In this document: positions 1,395 to 12,399 of the stretch, in pieces
How the letters are laid out: each line of letters begins with the position of its first letter
Numbering within the stretch: position 1 is the first letter of the stretch
From: a virus
Virus genome (UHGV): UHGV-1779463
Strand: one strand, 5' to 3'
Length of the DNA stretch: 12,399 bases
Made by a program: the position numbers and the translations under genes
The notes under the pieces: generated by a model
Databases searched by the model: none
What the model saw: only the letters and a program-made list of their open reading frames with translations
What the model was told of the DNA's origin: nothing

Positions 1395-1803
1395 CCTAAA
1401 TCATCAATATACACCCCTCTGGGATGTGTTTACATGGTCGGATAAGACAAAATATGAGTATTCGCATCCAGTTGACTACCCATTTGCATGTTGCTTGACC
1501 ATCTTCAGTAACATATGCAGAAGGGTGCGGGCAACCTTAAGCGAGAAGCGGATCTATCAGTCCTAAAGTGCAAAAGGGCGATCTAGTCACATTGAGACAT
1601 TAATTACATTAGGGTATGTTAAGCCCATTGGCGGGCACTATGATGGGTTCAAGTAGGTAATCATCATTTAATGGACTAGTCCTATATAGCCAGAACACAG
1701 ATAGCAAGTTCAGACACCATCTTTTGTACCTCGAAAACTCAAAAAGGATGGGTCAGTTTTAGTCGGCGACAACAGGTTTAAATAAGCAATTTAAGGGGGG
1801 GAT

Positions 1804-2133
1804 ATGGATTTTTTAACAAGTACTCTGCTATCAGGAATACTCTATGATGGGTTTAAGAACGGCGTTGCAATAACTACAGGTTTCTTGAAAGAAAAGCTAC
1901 ATGGATGGATTGTTGACGATACTTTATTGGAGACTTTAGCTTATAAAGTAAATACTCTTGAGCTTAAGGATTATGGAGAGCATGTTATCGAGCGAAAATT
2001 GAACGAATCATCAGAAATACAGCAAATTTTAAAACTGATTCAGCCTGAGCAAAACACGAATATTGGGTCAGTGACTCAGAATCACAGTGGTTCTGGTGAT
2101 AACATTATTGGAAACAAAAATATATACAAATAG
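1804..2133 (+). CDS. Small protein (109 aa) with a hydrophobic N-terminal segment and a C-terminal motif HSGSGDNIIGNKNIYK shared with the downstream gene
   Basis: Strong Shine-Dalgarno (aaggggggg) 3-5 nt upstream of the ATG. AT-rich like the downstream large ORF. The C-terminal motif is repeated at the N-terminus of ORF 2146-5430 with many synonymous nucleotide differences, implying protein-level conservation. Confidence 0.7.
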   Translation: MDFLTSTLLSGILYDGFKNGVAITTGFLKEKLHGWIVDDTLLETLAYKVNTLELKDYGEHVIERKLNESSEIQQILKLIQPEQNTNIGSVTQNHSGSGDNIIGNKNIYK

Positions 2134-2145
2134 AAGAAATGGACG

Positions 2146-5100
2146 ATGATGGTAGATCAAATACACAGTGGCGTAGGTGACAATATCATAGGTGATAAAT
2201 ACGAATATATAATTCGTAGTATTAAATCTAGGGATCTGCGGACTGTTATAGACAGTATAATGAGAGATATTTGCTATAGAGAATTAGGCAGAGTTCGTGA
2301 AAAGCTAGACGTTCTTAATAATATTCATTCATTAGAAAATGATGTATATCTACTATTGAATGCTTTGAATGTAAAGCTTGAGTTGGTAAAAGGCTCGATA
2401 TCATCATCAAAAAATGATCTTCTAAAATTGCTACAGAACAATGACCTCCCTGGTGATGTTCGTGAGGTCATTACATCTATATTGATCGATTTGGAATCGA
2501 GAACCTCTGAAGAGTTAGCTAAAAAAAGATATTCAGATTTAAAAATAGATGGGTTCTATCTCAAAGAGGTGTTCTTTGAGCGATTAGCCTCAATGGAAGA
2601 GCTATCTAAAAGCTATCATAACACAGAGGTTTATGATTTATCCGAGCAAGAGTTAACTGGATTAGTTCGCGGTGCTTTAAGAGTCCAAGATTTTGTTTTT
2701 GCGTTTGAACTGGCTCAGAATCTGGATAAGTATTATTCATCCAATAATTCAAGGATTCTTCGGCTATACACTGAAACCTGTTTACTCATAACTCGAAACC
2801 AACGTAATCATTATGTTTCACTTAGTAAACAGGAAAAAGATAATGTTGACCGGTTAATAATCCAATTACTAGCTGATATTGATGACGGAAAAGATGATAG
2901 ATATATCGCTGTTTTAACCAATTTGCTTAAACTTACCTATTTTTCAGATAGTCGACTTTATAATTTAGGAAAGTTGCATATTGATAAAGTTAGGGAGATA
3001 GACTCCTTTTCTGCGGAGTATCTAGAGCAGTCCTCAATAGGAATGAGCACTCCCGATATTAAATTTGAATTAGTATCTGATGTTTTGGATTTGGAAAAGT
3101 TTTCATTTCTTATTTTTGCTATTGAGAATAATCAGATGAAAGCTAAAGACGTAAATAACTGGATAGACAATGGAGGGATAATTGAAACAGGAGATGATTA
3201 TATTAATTCCTTCTTGAACTTGTACCTTAGGGCGCTAGTATGTTCGGTTGACGATAAGAATGAAATCCAACTGCTGGATAAAAAAGCGCAAGATTTTTTA
3301 GAATTAGATTCTAAAAAGTTTATGCTAATAAACCCTGCGAACATATTAAACTTATGCGATAAATTTATTTTATGTAATTTACCATTGAACGCGGTTAATT
3401 ATCTCACCCCATTGTTATCTGATGAAGCTTGGGTATCTCCGATTTTCGAATGTTATCTTAACGCTCTATTTCTCAGTGATAAGATTGATTTATTTTTAAA
3501 TAAAATAAAGCACTTAGAACCATGCGATAAAACAGAGCTAATTTATTTAAGAGAAGCCCAAGTGTACGACCGATTAGATGAATATGAGCTATCAATAAAA
3601 TCGATCAGATTTGCAATTGAAATTTCACCAAACAACCCTTATTCCTGGTACTTATTGCTGCACACATCAAGAAAAAATGGGGGGGATGCGCAATTTCTTA
3701 AAGAAATTGTTTTTGAGATCCCAGAAGTTATTTTTTCTACCTACGATGAGTCAAAGATCACATTAGTTAATGAAATAGCGACTTATATTGATATACACAT
3801 TGCGGAGAGAGTGCTTGTTGATTGGTTTGTCCAAAACCCAGTAAAAGTGGCAAAGCCTTTGACCCAGATTCACGCAAACTCATTGATAAATAGCCAAAAA
3901 GTTAATAGTAATCCACTTGTCCCTAATAAGTGTGGGGATGGTATTACATATTCTGATGGGTTTGAAACATTTACCCGAATTCTTGTACGTGACGTTGAGG
4001 CTAGTCATCCGTGCTTGTTGGAAATAGAGTCACCACTTGGACAGATTCTCGAGAATATGCAGGAAGGAGATTGTTCTGGTGACTTTACAATGATTAAGCG
4101 TGTGCCTCCTTACGTCGCAGTATTTAGGCAGGCTGTGGAGCTTCGCAGTAAAGGTAACGATGGTACTGATGTTTTCAGACAATTTTCTCTACCTCCTCAT
4201 GAAGAGGAATTCATTCCTTATTTTGAGAATATTCTAAAACGATATTCTACGAAAGATAAAGAAAGGGATGCAGTATTGCATACCCCCAATATACCTTTAA
4301 CGATGAAAGGCAATTTTACGGATCCTACAGACCCTGTAAGAGGGGCTATAACACATTTAACGTCAATTACATCAACCAAATATTTGGAGTTATTCAATAG
4401 TGGAGAAGAAACACCAAATAAGGTAATTATTGATGTGTATACGGCTGTTTATTTCTCATTAATGGGTTTTTCTTCAGCTGTAGTAGATTCGAATATAGAA
4501 ATAATTGTATGTAAATATACAAAGCAAGTATTGGAAGGGTGGATTGAAAATATTCTAAGAGAAGACTACATGTCTATAGGTGTATCTGATAAAGGACTTT
4601 ATAGAGTCACATCTGAAGATATTCGAAGGGATTCATGTGATTTTATTCATAATCTCCAGATATTACTTGAATTTGTAACAGTAGAACCGCTGAAACCAGC
4701 AGATACACCAGAGTTATTAGTTAAAGTAAGAGATTTGGTTGATTGGGCTGTTTACTCTACCTTCCAGCTTTCTATAGCAAATAGTATCCCATTGCTTAGC
4801 ATTGACCATTTGATGTGTGAATTAGCGTATAGTTCAGAGTATCCAACGGCAAATATGAATTCCTTTGTCATGAGGATTTTAAACTCTTTATCTTTGCCGG
4901 AAAGAAAAAAAAGCATTCAAACTAACTTATCTTCGGGTACACCTGTTCCAATTTTGTATGATGATATATTATATCTCAGCCGCTCAGCAGAAATTTCTGA
5001 TACATACTTAGTATTCAAGTTTATGGAAAAATATGGAGAAACCATTTCTGCAACAGGATCTTCTCTAAACTACCTAACTGCAATTGTGAGAAACGTAACA

Positions 5101-5430
5101 GTGATGGCTTGCATAGATGGAGCTATTTTAGCTGGTGGTAGAGCACACAATCCACGGTATGATGGATATGTTGAGCATGTTTTTAATTATTGCTGTCGCT
5201 CTGCAATAGTTAATCTGGATGGTGAAACTGCTGAACAAAGATTAGCATTACTAATCTATAATGTAATAGATATGCCTCGAAGAGTTCGTAAATACTTGGA
5301 ATTGATATCATTGCTGACTACTGAGTTCACAATAGGACATTTTCTGGATATTAAAGCATGTAATGAGAGCCTGGTTGCTTGTCAGAATGGTAAAAAAATA
5401 GATGAGCAAGGGAGTATTGAAGCAAGTTAA
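2146..5430 (+). CDS. Large uncharacterised protein (1094 aa), AT-rich, with TPR-like helical repeats and no P-loop; candidate sensor/effector of a defence-type system
   Basis: A 3.3-kb ORF with no antisense ORF of 60 aa or more. N-terminus IHSGVGDNIIGDKYEY repeats the C-terminal motif of the upstream ORF. TPR-like segment around ELIYLREAQVYDRLDEYELSIKSIRFAIEISPNNPYSWYLLL. No GxxxxGK[ST] found on manual scan. Weak ribosome-binding site; starts 12 nt after the upstream stop in the same frame. Confidence 0.9.
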   Translation: MMVDQIHSGVGDNIIGDKYEYIIRSIKSRDLRTVIDSIMRDICYRELGRVREKLDVLNNIHSLENDVYLLLNALNVKLELVKGSISSSKNDLLKLLQNNDLPGDVREVITSILIDLESRTSEELAKKRYSDLKIDGFYLKEVFFERLASMEELSKSYHNTEVYDLSEQELTGLVRGALRVQDFVFAFELAQNLDKYYSSNNSRILRLYTETCLLITRNQRNHYVSLSKQEKDNVDRLIIQLLADIDDGKDDRYIAVLTNLLKLTYFSDSRLYNLGKLHIDKVREIDSFSAEYLEQSSIGMSTPDIKFELVSDVLDLEKFSFLIFAIENNQMKAKDVNNWIDNGGIIETGDDYINSFLNLYLRALVCSVDDKNEIQLLDKKAQDFLELDSKKFMLINPANILNLCDKFILCNLPLNAVNYLTPLLSDEAWVSPIFECYLNALFLSDKIDLFLNKIKHLEPCDKTELIYLREAQVYDRLDEYELSIKSIRFAIEISPNNPYSWYLLLHTSRKNGGDAQFLKEIVFEIPEVIFSTYDESKITLVNEIATYIDIHIAERVLVDWFVQNPVKVAKPLTQIHANSLINSQKVNSNPLVPNKCGDGITYSDGFETFTRILVRDVEASHPCLLEIESPLGQILENMQEGDCSGDFTMIKRVPPYVAVFRQAVELRSKGNDGTDVFRQFSLPPHEEEFIPYFENILKRYSTKDKERDAVLHTPNIPLTMKGNFTDPTDPVRGAITHLTSITSTKYLELFNSGEETPNKVIIDVYTAVYFSLMGFSSAVVDSNIEIIVCKYTKQVLEGWIENILREDYMSIGVSDKGLYRVTSEDIRRDSCDFIHNLQILLEFVTVEPLKPADTPELLVKVRDLVDWAVYSTFQLSIANSIPLLSIDHLMCELAYSSEYPTANMNSFVMRILNSLSLPERKKSIQTNLSSGTPVPILYDDILYLSRSAEISDTYLVFKFMEKYGETISATGSSLNYLTAIVRNVTVMACIDGAILAGGRAHNPRYDGYVEHVFNYCCRSAIVNLDGETAEQRLALLIYNVIDMPRRVRKYLELISLLTTEFTIGHFLDIKACNESLVACQNGKKIDEQGSIEAS

Positions 5431-5506
5431 TCATTGTCAGATGAACTATTATAGTGATTGGATTTAGAACAATCAAAAATATAAATTGGTACAAGCTGTG
5501 TCCCTT

Positions 5507-5537
5507 AACCAATGATGTGACCTGCTCGTCATTGGTT
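5507..5537 (+). terminator. Hairpin downstream of the large ORF (9-bp stem aaccaatga/tcattggtt, 13-nt loop); weak terminator candidate
   Basis: Exact 9-bp inverted repeat about 80 bp after the stop at 5430, followed by tttattcc. The stem is AT-rich and the loop long, so confidence is low. Confidence 0.25.
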
Positions 5538-6020
5538 TATTCCTAACGTCCGCTTTAGGCACAGCCGACTGCCAGGTACTGCCAGGTAAGGTATCAATAT
5601 CGCCCGTCTGACCTGAGGATCATCATTGGATTTATTTTTGGGATGGTTAAGTAACATGTTAAAGGAAACTAACTCAGGTACAATTATGCAAAAAATTGCT
5701 TCTATGTGGTTTAAATTCACGACTGAGATTTCTACGTGAATTCAACCTAAGAAATACCGGTAAAATCGCTTATAAAGTTGATGTTATGTTGATGGTTTTT
5801 TTCTGGGGTTTTGATTGCCAGATATCTCTATTGGATTGTTTTTTATGTAATTAATGATGAGCTTAAGCGATGCCTGCTAACGTCAACACATTCTTATAAA
5901 GTGATTAATTTCTATAAGTACTTTTTCTAAAAAATTGATTTTTACGGATGGATGCCCATCAATGGAAAATCATTTTTTTCTAAGACTTTGATCTTTTATT
6001 GATGGTGTTAGTTGGGACTC

Positions 6021-6183: not shown

Positions 6184-7236
6184 CTAGTAGTAATGGTCAT
6201 AACCTCCGCTTTCTCTTCTGGCTCTGGATGCTCTCACTCGTGCTTTTCTTAACATCCTTAACAGCGGGTGGGTTTGTACTTTGTTCGAGTTTATTATCTG
6301 TGAGGATAGTAACTCCCTACGCTCTGTCTCTGCCTCTTTGGTGACCGCTATCACTGATAAGTCCCAATCGTGCTTGCTAATTAACGGTGCTTCGAATGGG
6401 GCGATTGGTGAGCGATTTATGTCTTGCCGTTTTAATGTACGCTGTATCTGCCGCTTAGATTTGTAGTTGTCTTTCCTTGATGCCTGAACGGCTTTTAGTA
6501 TGCGTCTTACAGCATGAAAGCCAGTGACAGAAAGTGTTTCTTTTTTTATCTCATGCCGCGCCCAGCCATTCGAATAACCCCAAACGCTGGCATCTGACCA
6601 ATCATATAGGCTCTTGCTCGCCTCTCTATTAAAGTCATTTAACTTAGTTTCGGGCTTTGCCATGTAATCAATTTGTTTACCTATATGCTTGGTAGGCTCT
6701 GAATATTGCTGACCTTTCAAATCTAGATCCCACTGAGGAGGAACATTTGATGGGATTGCATTGTTTGCCAGTGTTACCCATTTGCTGACAATTTTGCCAG
6801 CTTGCCCATTAATGCTTCTTTCGTTCACCATGATTATTGCGTGTACATGCGGCTCTGACTGGTGTTGAGCCCACTCCATGACGTAAACCCACTGATTGCC
6901 TTTCGAAGTCAACCATCTGGTAAGTGCCTTTAACGCTTTGTTGAATTTCTCTGGCGTTGTTCCCTTAACGGGTCTGAAGGTAAAGGAGTAGGGGATACCA
7001 CTAGTTGATTCGACATCCAGAGTAAACAAAGCTCGCCTCATTGTACGCCATTTCTTCTTTGTCCAGGCTGGTGGTATGCAGTGGTTAGCCTTTGATGATT
7101 GGCGTTTATTCTCTGCCTTTAATTCATTACGTTTGTGCGTAACTGATTTCACATAAGCTAATGTGCGACCATTGATGTGATTGATTACGGCTTGTGATTT
7201 TGTGGATAGACTCGCGTCTTTATCGTATAATTCCAT
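6184..7236 (-). CDS. HUH-motif replication-initiator-like protein (rolling-circle Rep / inovirus Gp2-like)
   Basis: 350-aa ORF with three motifs in canonical Rep order and spacing: ALFTLDV (motif I-like), EPHVHAIIMV (His-hydrophobic-His) and IDYMAKP (YxxK catalytic tyrosine). No clear Shine-Dalgarno. Confidence 0.75.
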   Translation of the reverse strand: MELYDKDASLSTKSQAVINHINGRTLAYVKSVTHKRNELKAENKRQSSKANHCIPPAWTKKKWRTMRRALFTLDVESTSGIPYSFTFRPVKGTTPEKFNKALKALTRWLTSKGNQWVYVMEWAQHQSEPHVHAIIMVNERSINGQAGKIVSKWVTLANNAIPSNVPPQWDLDLKGQQYSEPTKHIGKQIDYMAKPETKLNDFNREASKSLYDWSDASVWGYSNGWARHEIKKETLSVTGFHAVRRILKAVQASRKDNYKSKRQIQRTLKRQDINRSPIAPFEAPLISKHDWDLSVIAVTKEAETERRELLSSQIINSNKVQTHPLLRMLRKARVRASRARRESGGYDHYY

Positions 7237-8595: not shown

Positions 8596-9307
8596 CGTAC
8601 TTATCCAAAGCGTTCGTTAGCAATCTCCGAAATGTATCTGGGTGGGTATCGCTGTCTTCATCGTTCCCGAATATTATGTTGTTTTCTATTACTTGGGCAC
8701 TAACCCTATTGATACTAAGGTTTCCTCCACTATGGAAATCTTTGCTTGATTCAAATAAGGCAATCGCCATTCCGGCGATCATCTTTAAAGCCGTATCTTT
8801 TCCTCTCCAGTTTTGTTCTCTTTCTACTTTTTTTGACAGTGCTCCAATTTCTGGTTCGTTATCTGGAACATTCATATCCAGTTCTGGAAAGAAGTTCACA
8901 ACCTCGGATCGCTTGAAATAAAACGAATCGTAAGACCCATACCAATCATCCTCATCATCGTGATATAAAAAGTCTTCTCCTTTCCTAACGTTGAAAGTCC
9001 CTTCTTCCCCCGGTATCGGGCTCTCCCTGTATTCATGCCCCATAGCCAGAAGACCTAAAAACTCCACACACTGCTTTTCAAAGTCTTCATTTGTCGTAAA
9101 ACCAGATACCCAATCGAACTGATAAAAGCCCAGCCCCCCTAAAGTATCTGGTTTAGTCTTGCTCAATCTGTAGTTACTTAAGATAGCGGCAGCTATCATT
9201 CTTTCATTTTCATTGTTTAGTCTTGCCAGTTCGCTGATCAGATTACCAAACCAGATTTTATCTTCTGACTCGTTATAAAACGCATCTAGTCCTGTCATCT
9301 TAGTCAC
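8552..9307 (-). CDS. Hypothetical protein (251 aa), translationally coupled to the integrase
   Basis: Long ORF. Probable GTG start at 9305-9307 with Shine-Dalgarno gaaggagaa, overlapping the integrase stop by 8 nt (alternative ATG at 9296-9298). Acidic, aromatic-rich sequence with no recognisable motif. Confidence 0.65.
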   Translation of the reverse strand: MTKMTGLDAFYNESEDKIWFGNLISELARLNNENERMIAAAILSNYRLSKTKPDTLGGLGFYQFDWVSGFTTNEDFEKQCVEFLGLLAMGHEYRESPIPGEEGTFNVRKGEDFLYHDDEDDWYGSYDSFYFKRSEVVNFFPELDMNVPDNEPEIGALSKKVEREQNWRGKDTALKMIAGMAIALFESSKDFHSGGNLSINRVSAQVIENNIIFGNDEDSDTHPDTFRRLLTNALDKYAPKFKNKATKKRPK

Positions 9308-10622
9308 GGCGTGTTCTCCTTCCGAACTCGTAAGGGCTTATGTGTATTTCTCGATTGGCGTCCAGATAATCTGCCCACCATTGAAGCATTAGTTTGCGCT
9401 CTTCTAAGTAATCAGCCTTGTGCTTGTAGGCTCTTTTAACGTCTTTATATTCTTTGTGGCTCATCTGGCGCTCTACTGCGTCCTCCTGCCACAAACCGGA
9501 CTCCATCAGGGAACTACAGGCTGTGGCACGGAATCCATGTCCAGTTACGTCCTCTTGCGTGTTATAGCCCATTAAGCGTAATGCCTTGTTTACCGTGTTT
9601 TCACTCATCACGCCTTTGGTGTTTCTTTCATTCGGAAACACAACATCGTAGCTTCCGCTTAGTTCTCTCAACTGCTTTACAATAGAAACAGCCTGACGGC
9701 TAAGAAGCACGATATGTTCGTCTTTTCCCGTCTTTGTGCCACGGGTGGAAAACCTCACACCATCGATAGGCTCTCTTTTTTTAGGGATAATCCACTCAGC
9801 CCGATCAAGGTCAAACTCTTTCCAACGGGCAAACCTTAACTCGCTTGAACGAACAAAGGTCAACATGGTTAGCTCAATGGCAAGGCGGGTAAGAGGATTA
9901 CCTTTAAAGCTGCCCAATCGAGTGAAAAAGTCTGGTAAATCTCTGGGATGTAGTGCGGCATGATGCTTAGTTTCATATTGCATTAACCGGACATCGAGAT
10001 CATTCGTGATGATTTCTGTCTTAATGCCGCTCAGACGGGCGCTATGTATGATGTCCTTAACTCGTTGTTTAAGTCGGTTGGCTGTATCGTGTTTCCCGGC
10101 GTCATCTACCTTCTTAAACAAAGGTAAAATTGTCATCGCCTCCAGTTTGCGAATATCCGAAGTGCCAATGTGAGGGAAAATATACATTTCAAGGCTTCTA
10201 AGTACGCGTTTTCGGTGGGCTTCGTTCCACATCTGGTGGCTTTCAACCCATTGACGTCCTATTGTCTCAAAAGTGAATGCACCTTTTTCTTCTGCTTTTG
10301 CTGCTCTTTGCTCTGCTTTGGGATCTATCCCCTTGACTAACAACTTTTTGGCGTTGTCTCGTTTTTCTCTGGCGTCTTGTAAGCTAATGGTTGGATAAGC
10401 CAGTTTGCTAGCCGGGTTTAAGGTGATACCGATCGCCGCAACATTGATGATGGCGTTCTGTGCGCTGGTTGGATTTGCCAGTGCTGTTTTAGCCAGGTAA
10501 TCGTTTTTCTGGAAATACTGAATTGCAAACTGGCTTTCCTTAGCCCATGTCACCGTCTGTTCAGTCAATGCTCCGCAGAATAACTGCTCCTGCTGTTTAA
10601 CGAATTCAACGATATTGCTCAT
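9300..10622 (-). CDS. int: Tyrosine recombinase / phage integrase (P4-like family) with a non-canonical N-terminal ~75 aa
   Basis: C-terminal catalytic signatures are present: VRSSELR (box I Arg), HGFRATACS (H-x-x-R), and RAYKHKADYLEERKLMLQWWADYLD (catalytic Tyr and the MxQ-WADYLD hallmark). The N-terminal arm-binding region is replaced by unrelated sequence. Shine-Dalgarno GGAG 8 nt upstream; ATGA overlap with the upstream ORF. Confidence 0.9.
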   Translation of the reverse strand: MSNIVEFVKQQEQLFCGALTEQTVTWAKESQFAIQYFQKNDYLAKTALANPTSAQNAIINVAAIGITLNPASKLAYPTISLQDAREKRDNAKKLLVKGIDPKAEQRAAKAEEKGAFTFETIGRQWVESHQMWNEAHRKRVLRSLEMYIFPHIGTSDIRKLEAMTILPLFKKVDDAGKHDTANRLKQRVKDIIHSARLSGIKTEIITNDLDVRLMQYETKHHAALHPRDLPDFFTRLGSFKGNPLTRLAIELTMLTFVRSSELRFARWKEFDLDRAEWIIPKKREPIDGVRFSTRGTKTGKDEHIVLLSRQAVSIVKQLRELSGSYDVVFPNERNTKGVMSENTVNKALRLMGYNTQEDVTGHGFRATACSSLMESGLWQEDAVERQMSHKEYKDVKRAYKHKADYLEERKLMLQWWADYLDANREIHISPYEFGRRTRRD

Positions 10623-10930
10623 GCAGCTTCTCCAAAAATGTGTCTGCGTTTGAATATTGCGAAGGCATATTCAGCCTTAACTCTTTCGGTTATTGCATCC
10701 CAGAACCATTCAGCGGCTTTTTCCTGATAGTTACAGTCATCATCTTCCAGCCAGTCGATAGCGTCCTTAGTGTGTTCATCTGGTTTATATGAGCGAAGCA
10801 TTTCGCTTATTGGGTCGCAACGTTTGCAGAGGCGATCAACTTCACTGTTGATTCGTTCGTAATCTTCATCAGTAAAACTTGCGATTATTTGCGATATTTC
10901 ACGCTTATCATTCAGAGTCAGAATCATCAT
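10619..10930 (-). CDS. Hypothetical phage protein (103 aa)
   Basis: Strong Shine-Dalgarno (acaggagaaag before the ATG); its TGA stop overlaps the integrase-ORF ATG. Acidic protein of unknown function. Confidence 0.6.
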   Translation of the reverse strand: MMILTLNDKREISQIIASFTDEDYERINSEVDRLCKRCDPISEMLRSYKPDEHTKDAIDWLEDDDCNYQEKAAEWFWDAITERVKAEYAFAIFKRRHIFGEAA

Positions 10931-11011
10931 CTTTCTCCTGTTCTTTGTGCTGATTGAGCATTTTGTTCATCTGACGAATGAATTCTTCGTCTGACCAGTT
11001 ATCTGTAAAAC

Positions 11012-11182
11012 TCATGGACGGCCTTGTTGTTTCAAAATATCCCAAAGCTTTTCGAGCAAACTTTTCATTCTTGGTTGTTTAAAGTCTGCTCCGGTTAAAA
11101 TATTTTTTCGTGAATGCTGTACCGATAAAATCGGGTTGAAAGGGCGAACCGATGCCGCCCCTGCAATAGCGAACTGTTGCAT
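11012..11182 (-). CDS. Hypothetical small protein (56 aa from the internal ATG; the ORF track extends it to 11287)
   Basis: The internal ATG at 11180-11182 is preceded by a strong Shine-Dalgarno (GGAG about 7 nt upstream). The longer 91-aa form begins with a Cys-rich, hydrophobic stretch and has no ribosome-binding site. Confidence 0.45.
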   Translation of the reverse strand: MQQFAIAGAASVRPFNPILSVQHSRKNILTGADFKQPRMKSLLEKLWDILKQQGRP

Positions 11183-11365
11183 AGGATGCTCCTTCTGTTT
11201 GATTGCATAACGAAAACGCCTCGAGTGAAGCGTTATTGGTATGCATATAAAAAGGCCCTCACACTGGAGGGCAAAGAAGATTTCCAATAATCAGAACAAG
11301 TCGGCTCCTGTTTAGTTACGAGCGACATTGCTCACATAGCAGACTCGCAAATCTACTATAGGTGC

Positions 11366-11524
11366 TTATTCGCATCGCATGACAACATCAAATTTTTCGA
11401 GATTACTTTGTCGCAACAATCCCTCTTCTACGCGGTCAGCTTTTCTATAATTATCAAATTCGAAATGTTTAATTACTTCTTTCGTTTCTCGCTCTATAAC
11501 TTCAACGATGTATTTCTTATTCAT
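11366..11524 (-). CDS. Hypothetical small protein (52 aa), not in the supplied ORF track
   Basis: Hand translation gives MNKKYIVEVIERETKEVIKHFEFDNYRKADRVEEGLLRQSNLEKFDVVMRCE. Shine-Dalgarno AGGTGA 6 nt upstream; its ATG overlaps the stop of the upstream gene by one nucleotide. Confidence 0.4.
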   Translation of the reverse strand: MNKKYIVEVIERETKEVIKHFEFDNYRKADRVEEGLLRQSNLEKFDVVMRCE

Positions 11525-11820
11525 TACTCATCACCTATGGCTTTTCTGATTGCTGCGAGACCTTTATTAACAGCTCCATACCATTCTGGATATGTTGTCG
11601 TTGTTCTATTTTTGGTTTGCTTAAGTAATAACTGAAGTGCTTCGAGAAGGTCAGGTGCTGCCGCTATTAGATTGGCATCTTCAATGCATTGAACTTCCTC
11701 ACAGATTGCAATATACGAACGCCAGCCTGCGCCATTTTCAAGTGAGTCTGCCTGGATTATTTTAATCTCATCGTCATCCATCATTATTTCCCACTTACCT
11801 TCAGTACCTTTAAATTCCAT
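11524..11820 (-). CDS. Small phage protein (about 98 aa) with an AAPDLLEAL motif, reminiscent of Ead/Ea22-like early proteins
   Basis: The ATG at 11818-11820 has a GAGG Shine-Dalgarno 6 nt upstream; the ORF-track extension to 11940 overlaps the upstream gene and passes through a terminator-like hairpin. The family name is recalled from the motif, not verified. Confidence 0.55.
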   Translation of the reverse strand: MEFKGTEGKWEIMMDDDEIKIIQADSLENGAGWRSYIAICEEVQCIEDANLIAAAPDLLEALQLLLKQTKNRTTTTYPEWYGAVNKGLAAIRKAIGDE

Positions 11821-11840
11821 GTTAGCCTCTGTTGTTAGTG

Positions 11841-11868
11841 CCAAAAATAAAGGCCGACTATGCGGCCT
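11841..11868 (-). terminator. Intrinsic-terminator-like hairpin after the 156-aa gene
   Basis: Minus strand reads AGGCCG-CATAGT-CGGCCT followed by TTATTTTTGG: a 6-bp GC-rich stem, 6-nt loop and T-tract. The stem overlaps the TAG stop at 11867-11869. Confidence 0.45.
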
Positions 11869-12337
11869 AGTAGAATACCCAATTTTCTGTTTCTTGGTTG
11901 TGTCCAAAGTTATATTCAATATCTGGTGTTGATGTATCAATATTCTTCATCCCATCAACAAGAGTTGATACAACAGCCAAATCTTGTTTGATTCTCATTA
12001 AATGGTATTTCTTCCGGCGCAATAAACTCTCAATGGCAAGTTTCTTCGTTGGGAATGCAAAAGATCTTTCTGCATTTTTTGCTACTTTCTTAATTGCATA
12101 TCTATTTCTCCTTTGTTTCCATTCCCGTAACCACTGATTTGGTGCTGGTTTAAAATCAACAATCCAATGCGCAGGAACCAACCATGCATAATGCTCTGTC
12201 TGATGAAAAGCTATATATTGAAGTGCGAATATTTTGATTCCATCTTCTTCAACTGTCGCTTGGAATCTCCAGAAAACAGGCATTCCATCATGTTCAGTTT
12301 CTGATTCAGGAAAAGGTACGCTCCATGATTTTGTCAT
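11867..12337 (-). CDS. Hypothetical phage protein (156 aa)
   Basis: Strong Shine-Dalgarno (GAGGTGA 3-4 nt before the ATG); protein-like composition; followed by a terminator-like hairpin. Confidence 0.6.
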   Translation of the reverse strand: MTKSWSVPFPESETEHDGMPVFWRFQATVEEDGIKIFALQYIAFHQTEHYAWLVPAHWIVDFKPAPNQWLREWKQRRNRYAIKKVAKNAERSFAFPTKKLAIESLLRRKKYHLMRIKQDLAVVSTLVDGMKNIDTSTPDIEYNFGHNQETENWVFY

Positions 12338-12399
12338 ATCTCACCTCAAATAAGTGGTTTGCTGCCTAATTTCATTTTCTGGCGACCAACACAAGTCAT

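Follow-up and report, generated by a model that had tools for sequence, protein, structure and literature searches.

The closest described counterpart of the gene pair reported here is Bab/Agp of Escherichia coli ECOR25, a system that is already known: a 2024 preprint, passages of which are drawn on throughout, reports extensive experiments and a crystal structure (Ibarlosa et al., 10.1101/2024.11.07.622273), and a curated NCBI family name exists. When placed on the chromosome, Bab/Agp confers on E. coli MG1655 a resistance to T5 and to certain Drexlerviridae phages that bears the hallmarks of abortive infection. With this system, amyloid templating was for the first time shown to carry an immune signal in bacteria; the system, whose receptor is not an NLR, also connects phage defence with the HET-S/NWD2 signalling of fungi and the RHIM signalling of animals. 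GAPS6, described from GMT islands of Vibrio parahaemolyticus, likewise protects E. coli from coliphages (Mahata et al., 10.1101/2023.03.28.534373, also used here in passages). The current work concerns two adjacent genes at positions 1804 to 5430 of UHGV virus genome UHGV-1779463, a stretch of 12,399 nucleotides (nt) that is called the window below. The pair is very probably the published E. coli Bab/Agp abortive-infection anti-phage system, belonging to the GAPS6 family and annotated as gapS6a/gapS6b.

A preliminary description made from the letters alone had regarded the pair as a candidate amyloid-signalling system like HET-s/NWD2 or Bell/NLR, with a partner other than an NLR, and had hypothesised a cell-death or anti-phage function. 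Both ideas are borne out by the passages of the preprint in which amyloid is reported for the Bab/Agp motif and T5 resistance is attributed to abortive infection. The motif pair is deeply conserved with variation in the same direction, and the domain layout holds. The window adds the recovery of the system from raw sequence, the joining of the names Bab/Agp and GAPS6, and comparative evidence that both copies of the motif vary together.

Identity of the gene pair and its shared motif

The pair and its two copies of the terminal motif, named BASS11, are located as follows (ORF, open reading frame; aa, amino acids).

1804..2133, plus strand, including the stop codon: bab / gapS6a, 109-aa effector (ORF, Pfam, NCBIfam, RefSeq)
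2134..2145, plus strand: spacer of 12 nt from the bab stop codon (TAG) to the agp start, both ORFs being in the same frame (sequence)
2146..5430, plus strand, including the stop codon: agp / gapS6b, 1094-aa sensor (ORF, NCBIfam)
2059..2127, plus strand: BASS11 motif of Bab, aa 86-108, with core QNHSGSGDNIIGNK and N100 (aligns with the Agp N-terminus; kept in 75 homologues)
2152..2223, plus strand: BASS11 motif of Agp, aa 3-26 in ORF numbering and 2-25 in the preprint (homologue conservation, AlphaFold2, preprint)

The two ORFs, of 109 and 1094 aa, have the lengths given for Bab and Agp of ECOR25. A phmmer search of the PDB aligned residues 1-84 of the small protein with the chains of entry 9H9V ("Babybass") at 84/84 identities (E 3e-51); this entry is the crystal structure of ECOR25 Bab and belongs to the preprint (10.1101/2024.11.07.622273). 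All Bab residues named in the preprint passages are present, namely G11, Y57, I87-G88-S89-V90 and N100, and N13, S629, L635 and D763 of the large protein correspond to N12, S628, L634 and D762 there, with an offset of one. The pair is identified with the published system because the structure, the lengths and all of the named residues agree; the direct identity check against ECOR25 covers Bab 1-84, and Agp was matched by length and named residues. The Agp ORF starts with two methionines (MM, 2146-2151), and the representative of its 90% cluster has 1093 aa and begins at the second.

Family assignments point in the same direction. Searches place the small protein in HetE-N of Pfam (PF20701, E 3.5e-33) and in GapS6a of NCBIfam (NF047935, 120.3 bits, cutoff 90), and the large one in GapS6b of NCBIfam (NF047936, 1063.7 bits, cutoff 850) over aa 5-1073. 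Of the profile searches proposed in the preliminary description, those of protein families identified both genes; PADLOC-DB 2023 contained no model for either protein, a silence to be expected because GAPS6 and Bab/Agp are more recent. The pair is found at an identity of at least 99% in 22 of 5426 complete E. coli genomes, under the RefSeq labels gapS6a/gapS6b, and the exact Agp sequence is present on 84 E. coli contigs. GAPS is absent from the passages of the Bab/Agp preprint, and the shared motif and amyloid are absent from the GAPS6 passages of the GMT-island preprint. In the texts compared, one family bears two unconnected names, Bab/Agp and GAPS6.

Bab at its C-terminus and Agp at its N-terminus carry a common peptide. 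Bab 90-108 (VTQNHSGSGDNIIGNKNIY) and Agp 3-21 (VDQIHSGVGDNIIGDKYEY) are identical at 13 of 19 positions in an ungapped alignment (single-comparison BLASTP E 1e-4). When the C-terminal 19-mer of Bab was scored along Agp without gaps, the best BLOSUM62 score, 54, fell at the extreme N-terminus; 5000 shuffles of Agp gave a mean of 17.0 (standard deviation 4.3) and a maximum of 41, and none reached 54. The identity of about 12/19 that had been given earlier for two 19-mers was reproduced exactly for those peptides. Their placement needed correction, to Agp residues 4-22 instead of 5-23, and to DNA 2074-2130 and 2155-2211 instead of 2080-2130 and 2161-2211.

At the DNA level, alignment of 2071-2130 with 2152-2211 shows 37 equal bases out of 60. 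Matches amount to 15/20 at each of codon positions 1 and 2 and to 7/20 at third positions, where 13/20 differ, and 9 of the 13 identical residues are encoded by different codons. It is therefore the peptide, not the DNA, that is conserved, as the preliminary description had held. According to the preprint (10.1101/2024.11.07.622273), thioflavin T and Congo red bind to the fibrils into which the peptides Bab(86-108) and Agp(2-25) assemble, BASS11 gives heritable prion-like foci in both E. coli and Podospora, and its assembly after infection depends on Agp. In the AlphaFold2 monomer model, Agp residues 1-16 have a predicted local distance difference test score (pLDDT) of about 31, that is, they are without a fixed fold.

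Domain layout and proposed mechanism

The domains of the two proteins are listed below in the order of their coordinates.

1804..2055, plus strand: Babybell globular helical domain of Bab, aa 1-84, with a hydrophobic N-terminal helix containing G11 (identity to 9H9V)
2203..3891, plus strand: TPR-like alpha-helical solenoid of Agp, aa 20-582 (AlphaFold2 model)
3931..4104, plus strand: small beta-rich domain of Agp, aa 596-653, GreA/B C-terminal-like according to the literature (AlphaFold2 model, conservation)
4420..4830, plus strand: predicted PIN nuclease domain of Agp, aa 759-895 (Pfam PF20698, conservation, AlphaFold2)
4843..5427, plus strand: C-terminal helical region of Agp, aa 900-1093 (helical in AlphaFold2 with pLDDT mostly 85-93; inside the GapS6b model)

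In the published Bab structure four helices cup the hydrophobic helix 1, and the fold is described as 'related to Bell' (10.1101/2024.11.07.622273). Agp was modelled with AlphaFold2 from a 38-sequence alignment (pLDDT 85.8, predicted template modelling score 0.79). The order along the protein is a disordered BASS11, the TPR solenoid, the GreA/B-C-like domain, the PIN domain and a helical tail. In aa 596-653 the model gives the order strand-strand-strand-helix-strand, which is compatible with a GreA/B-C-like domain; all 38 homologues have G632 and L635, and conservation at S629 amounts to at least 90%. The PIN domain is recognised by Pfam PIN-TPR-GreABC (PF20698, E 6.2e-16, 59 bits, cutoff 27.8) over aa 761-895 and model positions 1-137 of 138. 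Its position (759 to about 900) folds as alpha/beta in the model, and in the same homologues D763 and D887 are invariant and D866 nearly so. The tail, aa 900-1093, matches no Pfam family.

No P-loop or STAND NTPase family was found in the large protein by Pfam or NCBIfam, and the AlphaFold2 model contains no such domain, in agreement with the first reading of the sequence. That reading had spoken of an 'unusual variant', which stands as regards the missing NTPase but not as regards an unexplored status: the layout is the published TPR-GreA/B-C-PIN (TGP) architecture, as the preprint passages present it.

In the proposed mechanism, the large sensor Agp would switch on the small membrane-killing Bab through the common amyloid motif of 20 residues. 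Infection by T5-like phages or some Drexlerviridae would bring about a change that Agp senses, and in the published proposal it is the GreA/B-C-like domain that would sense a phage-hijacked RNA polymerase. The BASS11 of Agp would then take on the amyloid cross-beta fold and template the BASS11 of Bab, whereupon helix 1 of Bab would be freed to attack the membrane, killing the cell before phage production. The authors of the preprint infer that Agp, after sensing the hijacked polymerase, oligomerises, and that helix 1 of Bab forms a pore.

Several mutants in the preprint (10.1101/2024.11.07.622273) bear on these steps. Resistance is abolished by the beta-breakers Bab N100P or Agp N12P; defence is abolished by Bab G11K and, in the GreA-like domain of Agp, by S628L or L634P. 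Moreover, HET-S together with an R0-Agp chimera, which carries the R0 motif of NWD2, replaces Bab and BASS11 and protects against T5.

A different division of labour follows from the RNase-first model that the preprint (10.1101/2024.11.07.622273) attributes to Kaur et al. in its summary. Agp would act mainly as a first-line RNase, docked on RNA polymerase through its GreA/B-C-like domain, with the PIN domain degrading phage transcripts; Bab would only provide suicide as a back-up, and the motif would serve simply for docking instead of as an amyloid switch. The strong detection of the PIN domain (PF20698, E 6e-16), its invariant acidic residues D763 and D887 and the existence of homologues without Bab speak for such an arrangement, and the preprint notes that an autonomous activity of Agp might become apparent only with phages that leave abortive infection untriggered. 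Its authors, too, regard the PIN domain, a putative RNase, as a possible first line of defence. A mainly RNase-based system is improbable, however: Bab N100P or G11K abolishes resistance, amyloid and prion-like foci arise from the motif peptides, and defence is kept when the unrelated R0 amyloid motif and HET-S are substituted.

Some points count against the identification with Bab/Agp and its templated killing mechanism as set out above. The mechanistic source is a preprint, of which a search of the literature library used gave no peer-reviewed version, and the identity of the phage trigger is inferred. The PIN mutant D762N destabilises Agp, according to the authors (10.1101/2024.11.07.622273), which leaves a nuclease role of the domain putative. 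The GreA/B-C homology found no independent confirmation: HMMER profiles of Agp aa 588-905 against Pfam and the PDB returned neither GreA nor GreB, and hhalign, with an E. coli GreA sequence identical to 1GRJ, placed Agp 620-642 on GreA 115-137 (SPIARGLIG, the expected site) with a non-significant E of 0.3. A separate model of aa 588-905, which spans the GreA-like and PIN domains, reached a pLDDT of only 47 from an 11-sequence alignment and was unusable.

Conservation, covariation and origin of the motif pair

The homologue set comprises 61 Agp-like and 75 Bab-like proteins, whose named sources are all gamma-proteobacteria: Yersinia, Serratia, Citrobacter, Enterobacter, Morganella, Vibrio, Aliivibrio, Shewanella, Marinomonas and Pseudoalteromonas. 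Every full-length Bab homologue ends in the motif and nearly every Agp homologue begins with it, and in 28/28 pairs it occupies the extreme termini of both partners. Conservation of the motif in orthologues had been set beforehand as a test; Agp Q5, G11, D12, N13 and K18 are invariant in the alignment of 38 Agp homologues, which includes one 24%-identical member. Motif-bearing partners proved to be adjacent on ten contigs. Three of these are prophage-like and have a large protein only 24-25% identical to Agp; there the partner has 105 aa and both proteins carry a 'GDNVG' variant of the motif. The preliminary description had expected a motif-bearing partner beside each homologue, and every examined adjacency with an N-terminal motif has one.

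Cognate motifs resemble each other more than motifs of exchanged partners. In the 28 pairs they share 10.04 of 15 columns on average, compared with 9.60 (standard deviation 0.13) for permuted partners, and 21 of 20000 permutations reach the observed similarity. The signal arises from changes in the same direction in both partners. Only this E. coli class has GDNIIG (II/II) in the two partners, one clade has alanine at the equivalent position in both, and the same glycine is lost from both partners of P0041/P0120, P0048/P0124 and P0059/P0149; two loci of a distant clade (L006 and L007) have tyrosine at position -3 in both.

The covariation for which a test on homologous pairs had been suggested is only partial: in P0052/P0130 and P0083/P0153 the glycine is missing from Agp alone. 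Two further considerations reduce the weight of the signal: the permutation test counts inherited changes several times, and most of the 28 pairs were matched through contigs of equal size, with some verified directly; this matching rule held in every directly verified case. It is a tentative proposal, and a rather doubtful one, that the BASS11 copies co-evolve in register within each pair, that templating is sequence-specific and that this may insulate the E. coli Bab/Agp paralogue classes. If true, such pair-specific barcoding of the motif could keep these classes from triggering each other. The passages of the preprint report only congruent Bab and Agp trees, and pair-specific barcoding is not stated there (10.1101/2024.11.07.622273). 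The residual novelty of the present data is the pair-specific, in-register covariation of the motif, together with a tandem duplication of the motif in some receptors.

Two tandem BASS11-like copies stand at the N-terminus in the Agp homologues P0034, P0071, P0072 and P0088, for example MEGQEHKGSGDNVVAVNQTHNGSGDNVARDK. At two such loci that were checked, L012 (619-3918) and L013 (2001-5309), the Bab partner has one motif copy. The tandem receptor motif recalls the two pseudo-repeats of HET-s.

A Bab gene is missing beside two Agp homologues, whose N-terminus is formed by another domain instead. In P0089, from Shewanella (L010 3001-6642), this domain has about 130 aa, starts as a Gly-rich hydrophobic segment and shows no similarity to Bab by BLASTP; the gene adjoins a phage-type repressor gene. 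P0086 (L011 2614-6561) has a trypsin-like N-terminal domain and a residual internal motif, HDGTGDIVADKF, and is overlapped by an upstream gene of the metallo-beta-lactamase fold with a weak Apyc1-like match. These fusions fit a role of the Agp N-terminus as the position where effectors are coupled, which has been proposed in the case of TGP proteins.

The window's two ORFs share a reading frame and have one stop codon and 12 nt between them. For that reason it was considered whether they descend from a single gene, disrupted recently, within which the motif had been duplicated in tandem. The comparative data led to the rejection of this origin, which is now extremely improbable. The two-gene layout is kept from E. 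coli to Vibrio, Shewanella, Marinomonas and the clade at 24% identity; spacers of 8, 10, 11 or 12 nt set the genes in relative frames that often differ, so that the shared frame looks incidental here; the motif copies differ at 13/20 third-codon positions; and both proteins were expressed and tested separately in the preprint. The preliminary description had named a split gene as the reading that would overturn it, and the spacers argue against this. Read-through of the TAG (2131-2148) would yield a fusion with two tandem BASS11 copies. At L006 (3971-7294) the Agp-like gene is itself split into ORFs of 380 and 686 aa, probably a pseudogene, and the Bab-like partner is intact.

Chance resemblance of low-complexity termini in two functionally unlinked genes, for which the shortness of the motif (about 19 aa) and its richness in G, N and S could be cited, has a negligible probability in view of 0/5000 shuffles reaching the score, the extreme terminal positions in 28/28 pairs, the five invariant Agp positions and the same-direction changes between partners.

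Carrier element and comparison with known systems

The G+C content is 0.32-0.39 over 1750-5750 and 0.42-0.48 in the flanks. The element in the window encodes a tyrosine integrase (Phage_integrase, E 8e-17), AlpA (PF05930, E 3.6e-18), a rolling-circle Rep-like gene and a resolvase. AT-rich cargo on an integrase/AlpA element, as the locus had first been described, is thus an accurate account of its base composition and gene content. Upstream of bab, one regulatory candidate was marked.

1592..1620, plus strand: candidate sigma-70-like promoter TTGAGA-17-TATGTT (consensus scan, 9/12 matches; weak)

The scanned region contains 13 promoter-like sites, compared with 19.3 expected from shuffled sequence; therefore this entry marks a position and is not a demonstration. 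The preprint worked with the native promoter region, which is unmapped in its passages (10.1101/2024.11.07.622273). A terminator scan gave none after agp.

A 350-aa ORF on the minus strand (6184-7236) has a relaxase-like N-terminal region and a weak Rep match (REP_ORF2-G2P, E 8e-7). It matches PHROG 30534 strongly, and RefSeq has a shorter 'rolling circle replication-associated protein' there. Taken with the integrase, alpA and helix-turn-helix genes, the Rep-like ORF suggests a small integrative element resembling a satellite.

Identity to the Bab/Agp island of 20 E. coli genomes ends at 10397, and 10398-12399 is lambdoid-prophage DNA of the recT/kil region. The 440-aa 'integrase' ORF at 9300-10622, which spans this junction, is for that reason regarded as an in-frame chimera, in which the N-terminus of RecT (about 75 aa) is joined to an integrase without its first 63 or so codons. 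Recombination may have removed the integrase start and the tRNA-Arg end from the island; the alternative is a chimeric contig. In strain G47-1 an intact island is located between dsdC and tRNA-Arg, adjoining yfdC; within the window no tRNA or Rfam family was found.

A tblastn search with Agp gave no match in 50,697 GenBank phage records, and six prophage-like contigs of IMG/VR carry Agp homologues. The system appears to be confined to integrated elements rather than sequenced free phages. At other loci, DarT and Macro (DarTG-like) genes lie directly downstream of the pair (L012 4059-5727), a Tn7-like TniQ/TnsD gene lies upstream (L013 1-574), or the pair is situated between the tail-completion and baseplate-assembly genes of a myovirus-type prophage (L002-L004; L002 2939-3391 and 7438-8001). 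The pair behaves as mobile defence cargo, and its carriers differ between loci.

Among described amyloid-signalling pairs, the Bell/NLR pairs with motifs BASS1-10 of Actinobacteria and Cyanobacteria (Dyrka et al., 10.1101/2020.01.06.895854) are likewise adjacent genes: a small helical effector that targets the membrane ends in the motif, and a large receptor with repeats begins with it. A Bell/HeLo-like helical effector domain with a hydrophobic N-terminal helix is present in the window pair as well (HetE-N; its relation to Bell is according to the preprint). The receptor, however, is TPR-GreA/B-C-PIN, with neither NB-ARC nor NACHT; the effector domain has about 80 aa instead of about 100; the hosts are unicellular gamma-proteobacteria; and the motif belongs to a separate family, BASS11.

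The HET-S/NWD2 ([Het-s]) system of Podospora anserina follows the same logic, in that a receptor motif templates the amyloid motif of the effector and frees a membrane-active N-terminal helix. It differs by its two-repeat beta-solenoid motif, its NACHT-WD40 NLR receptor and its role in fungal allorecognition, and has no detectable sequence homology to the window pair; a Pfam search of the pair gave no HeLo, HET-s or NACHT match. Because there is no STAND NTPase and no HeLo/HET-s match, the window pair is a functional analogue, not a member, of the Bell/NLR and HET-S/NWD2 groups.

With the TGP proteins (Kaur et al., according to the preprint) Agp has in common the PIN domain of the family (PF20698) and the TPR repeats. 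In other TGP proteins the linked modules are TIR, EAD10 or PNPase, whereas the link between Agp and its effector is an amyloid motif; homologues with a trypsin-like or an unassigned N-terminal domain also exist.

Both window proteins exceed the cutoffs of the GapS6a and GapS6b families, and thereby join GAPS6 of the V. parahaemolyticus GMT islands (10.1101/2023.03.28.534373). Vibrio homologues are 60-64% identical for Agp and 71-80% for Bab, with the motif pair kept. The passages of its preprint go no further than to present GAPS6 as a system of two proteins with TPR and PINc domains. It is carried by a GMT island, and the window pair by an integrase/AlpA island.

The closest match remains Bab/Agp of ECOR25 (10.1101/2024.11.07.622273), which, as far as the passages compared extend, is the same system: nothing of substance differs, apart from the integrase end of the island, which is replaced here by lambdoid-prophage DNA, and the motif, the domain order and the prophage/defence-island setting all agree.

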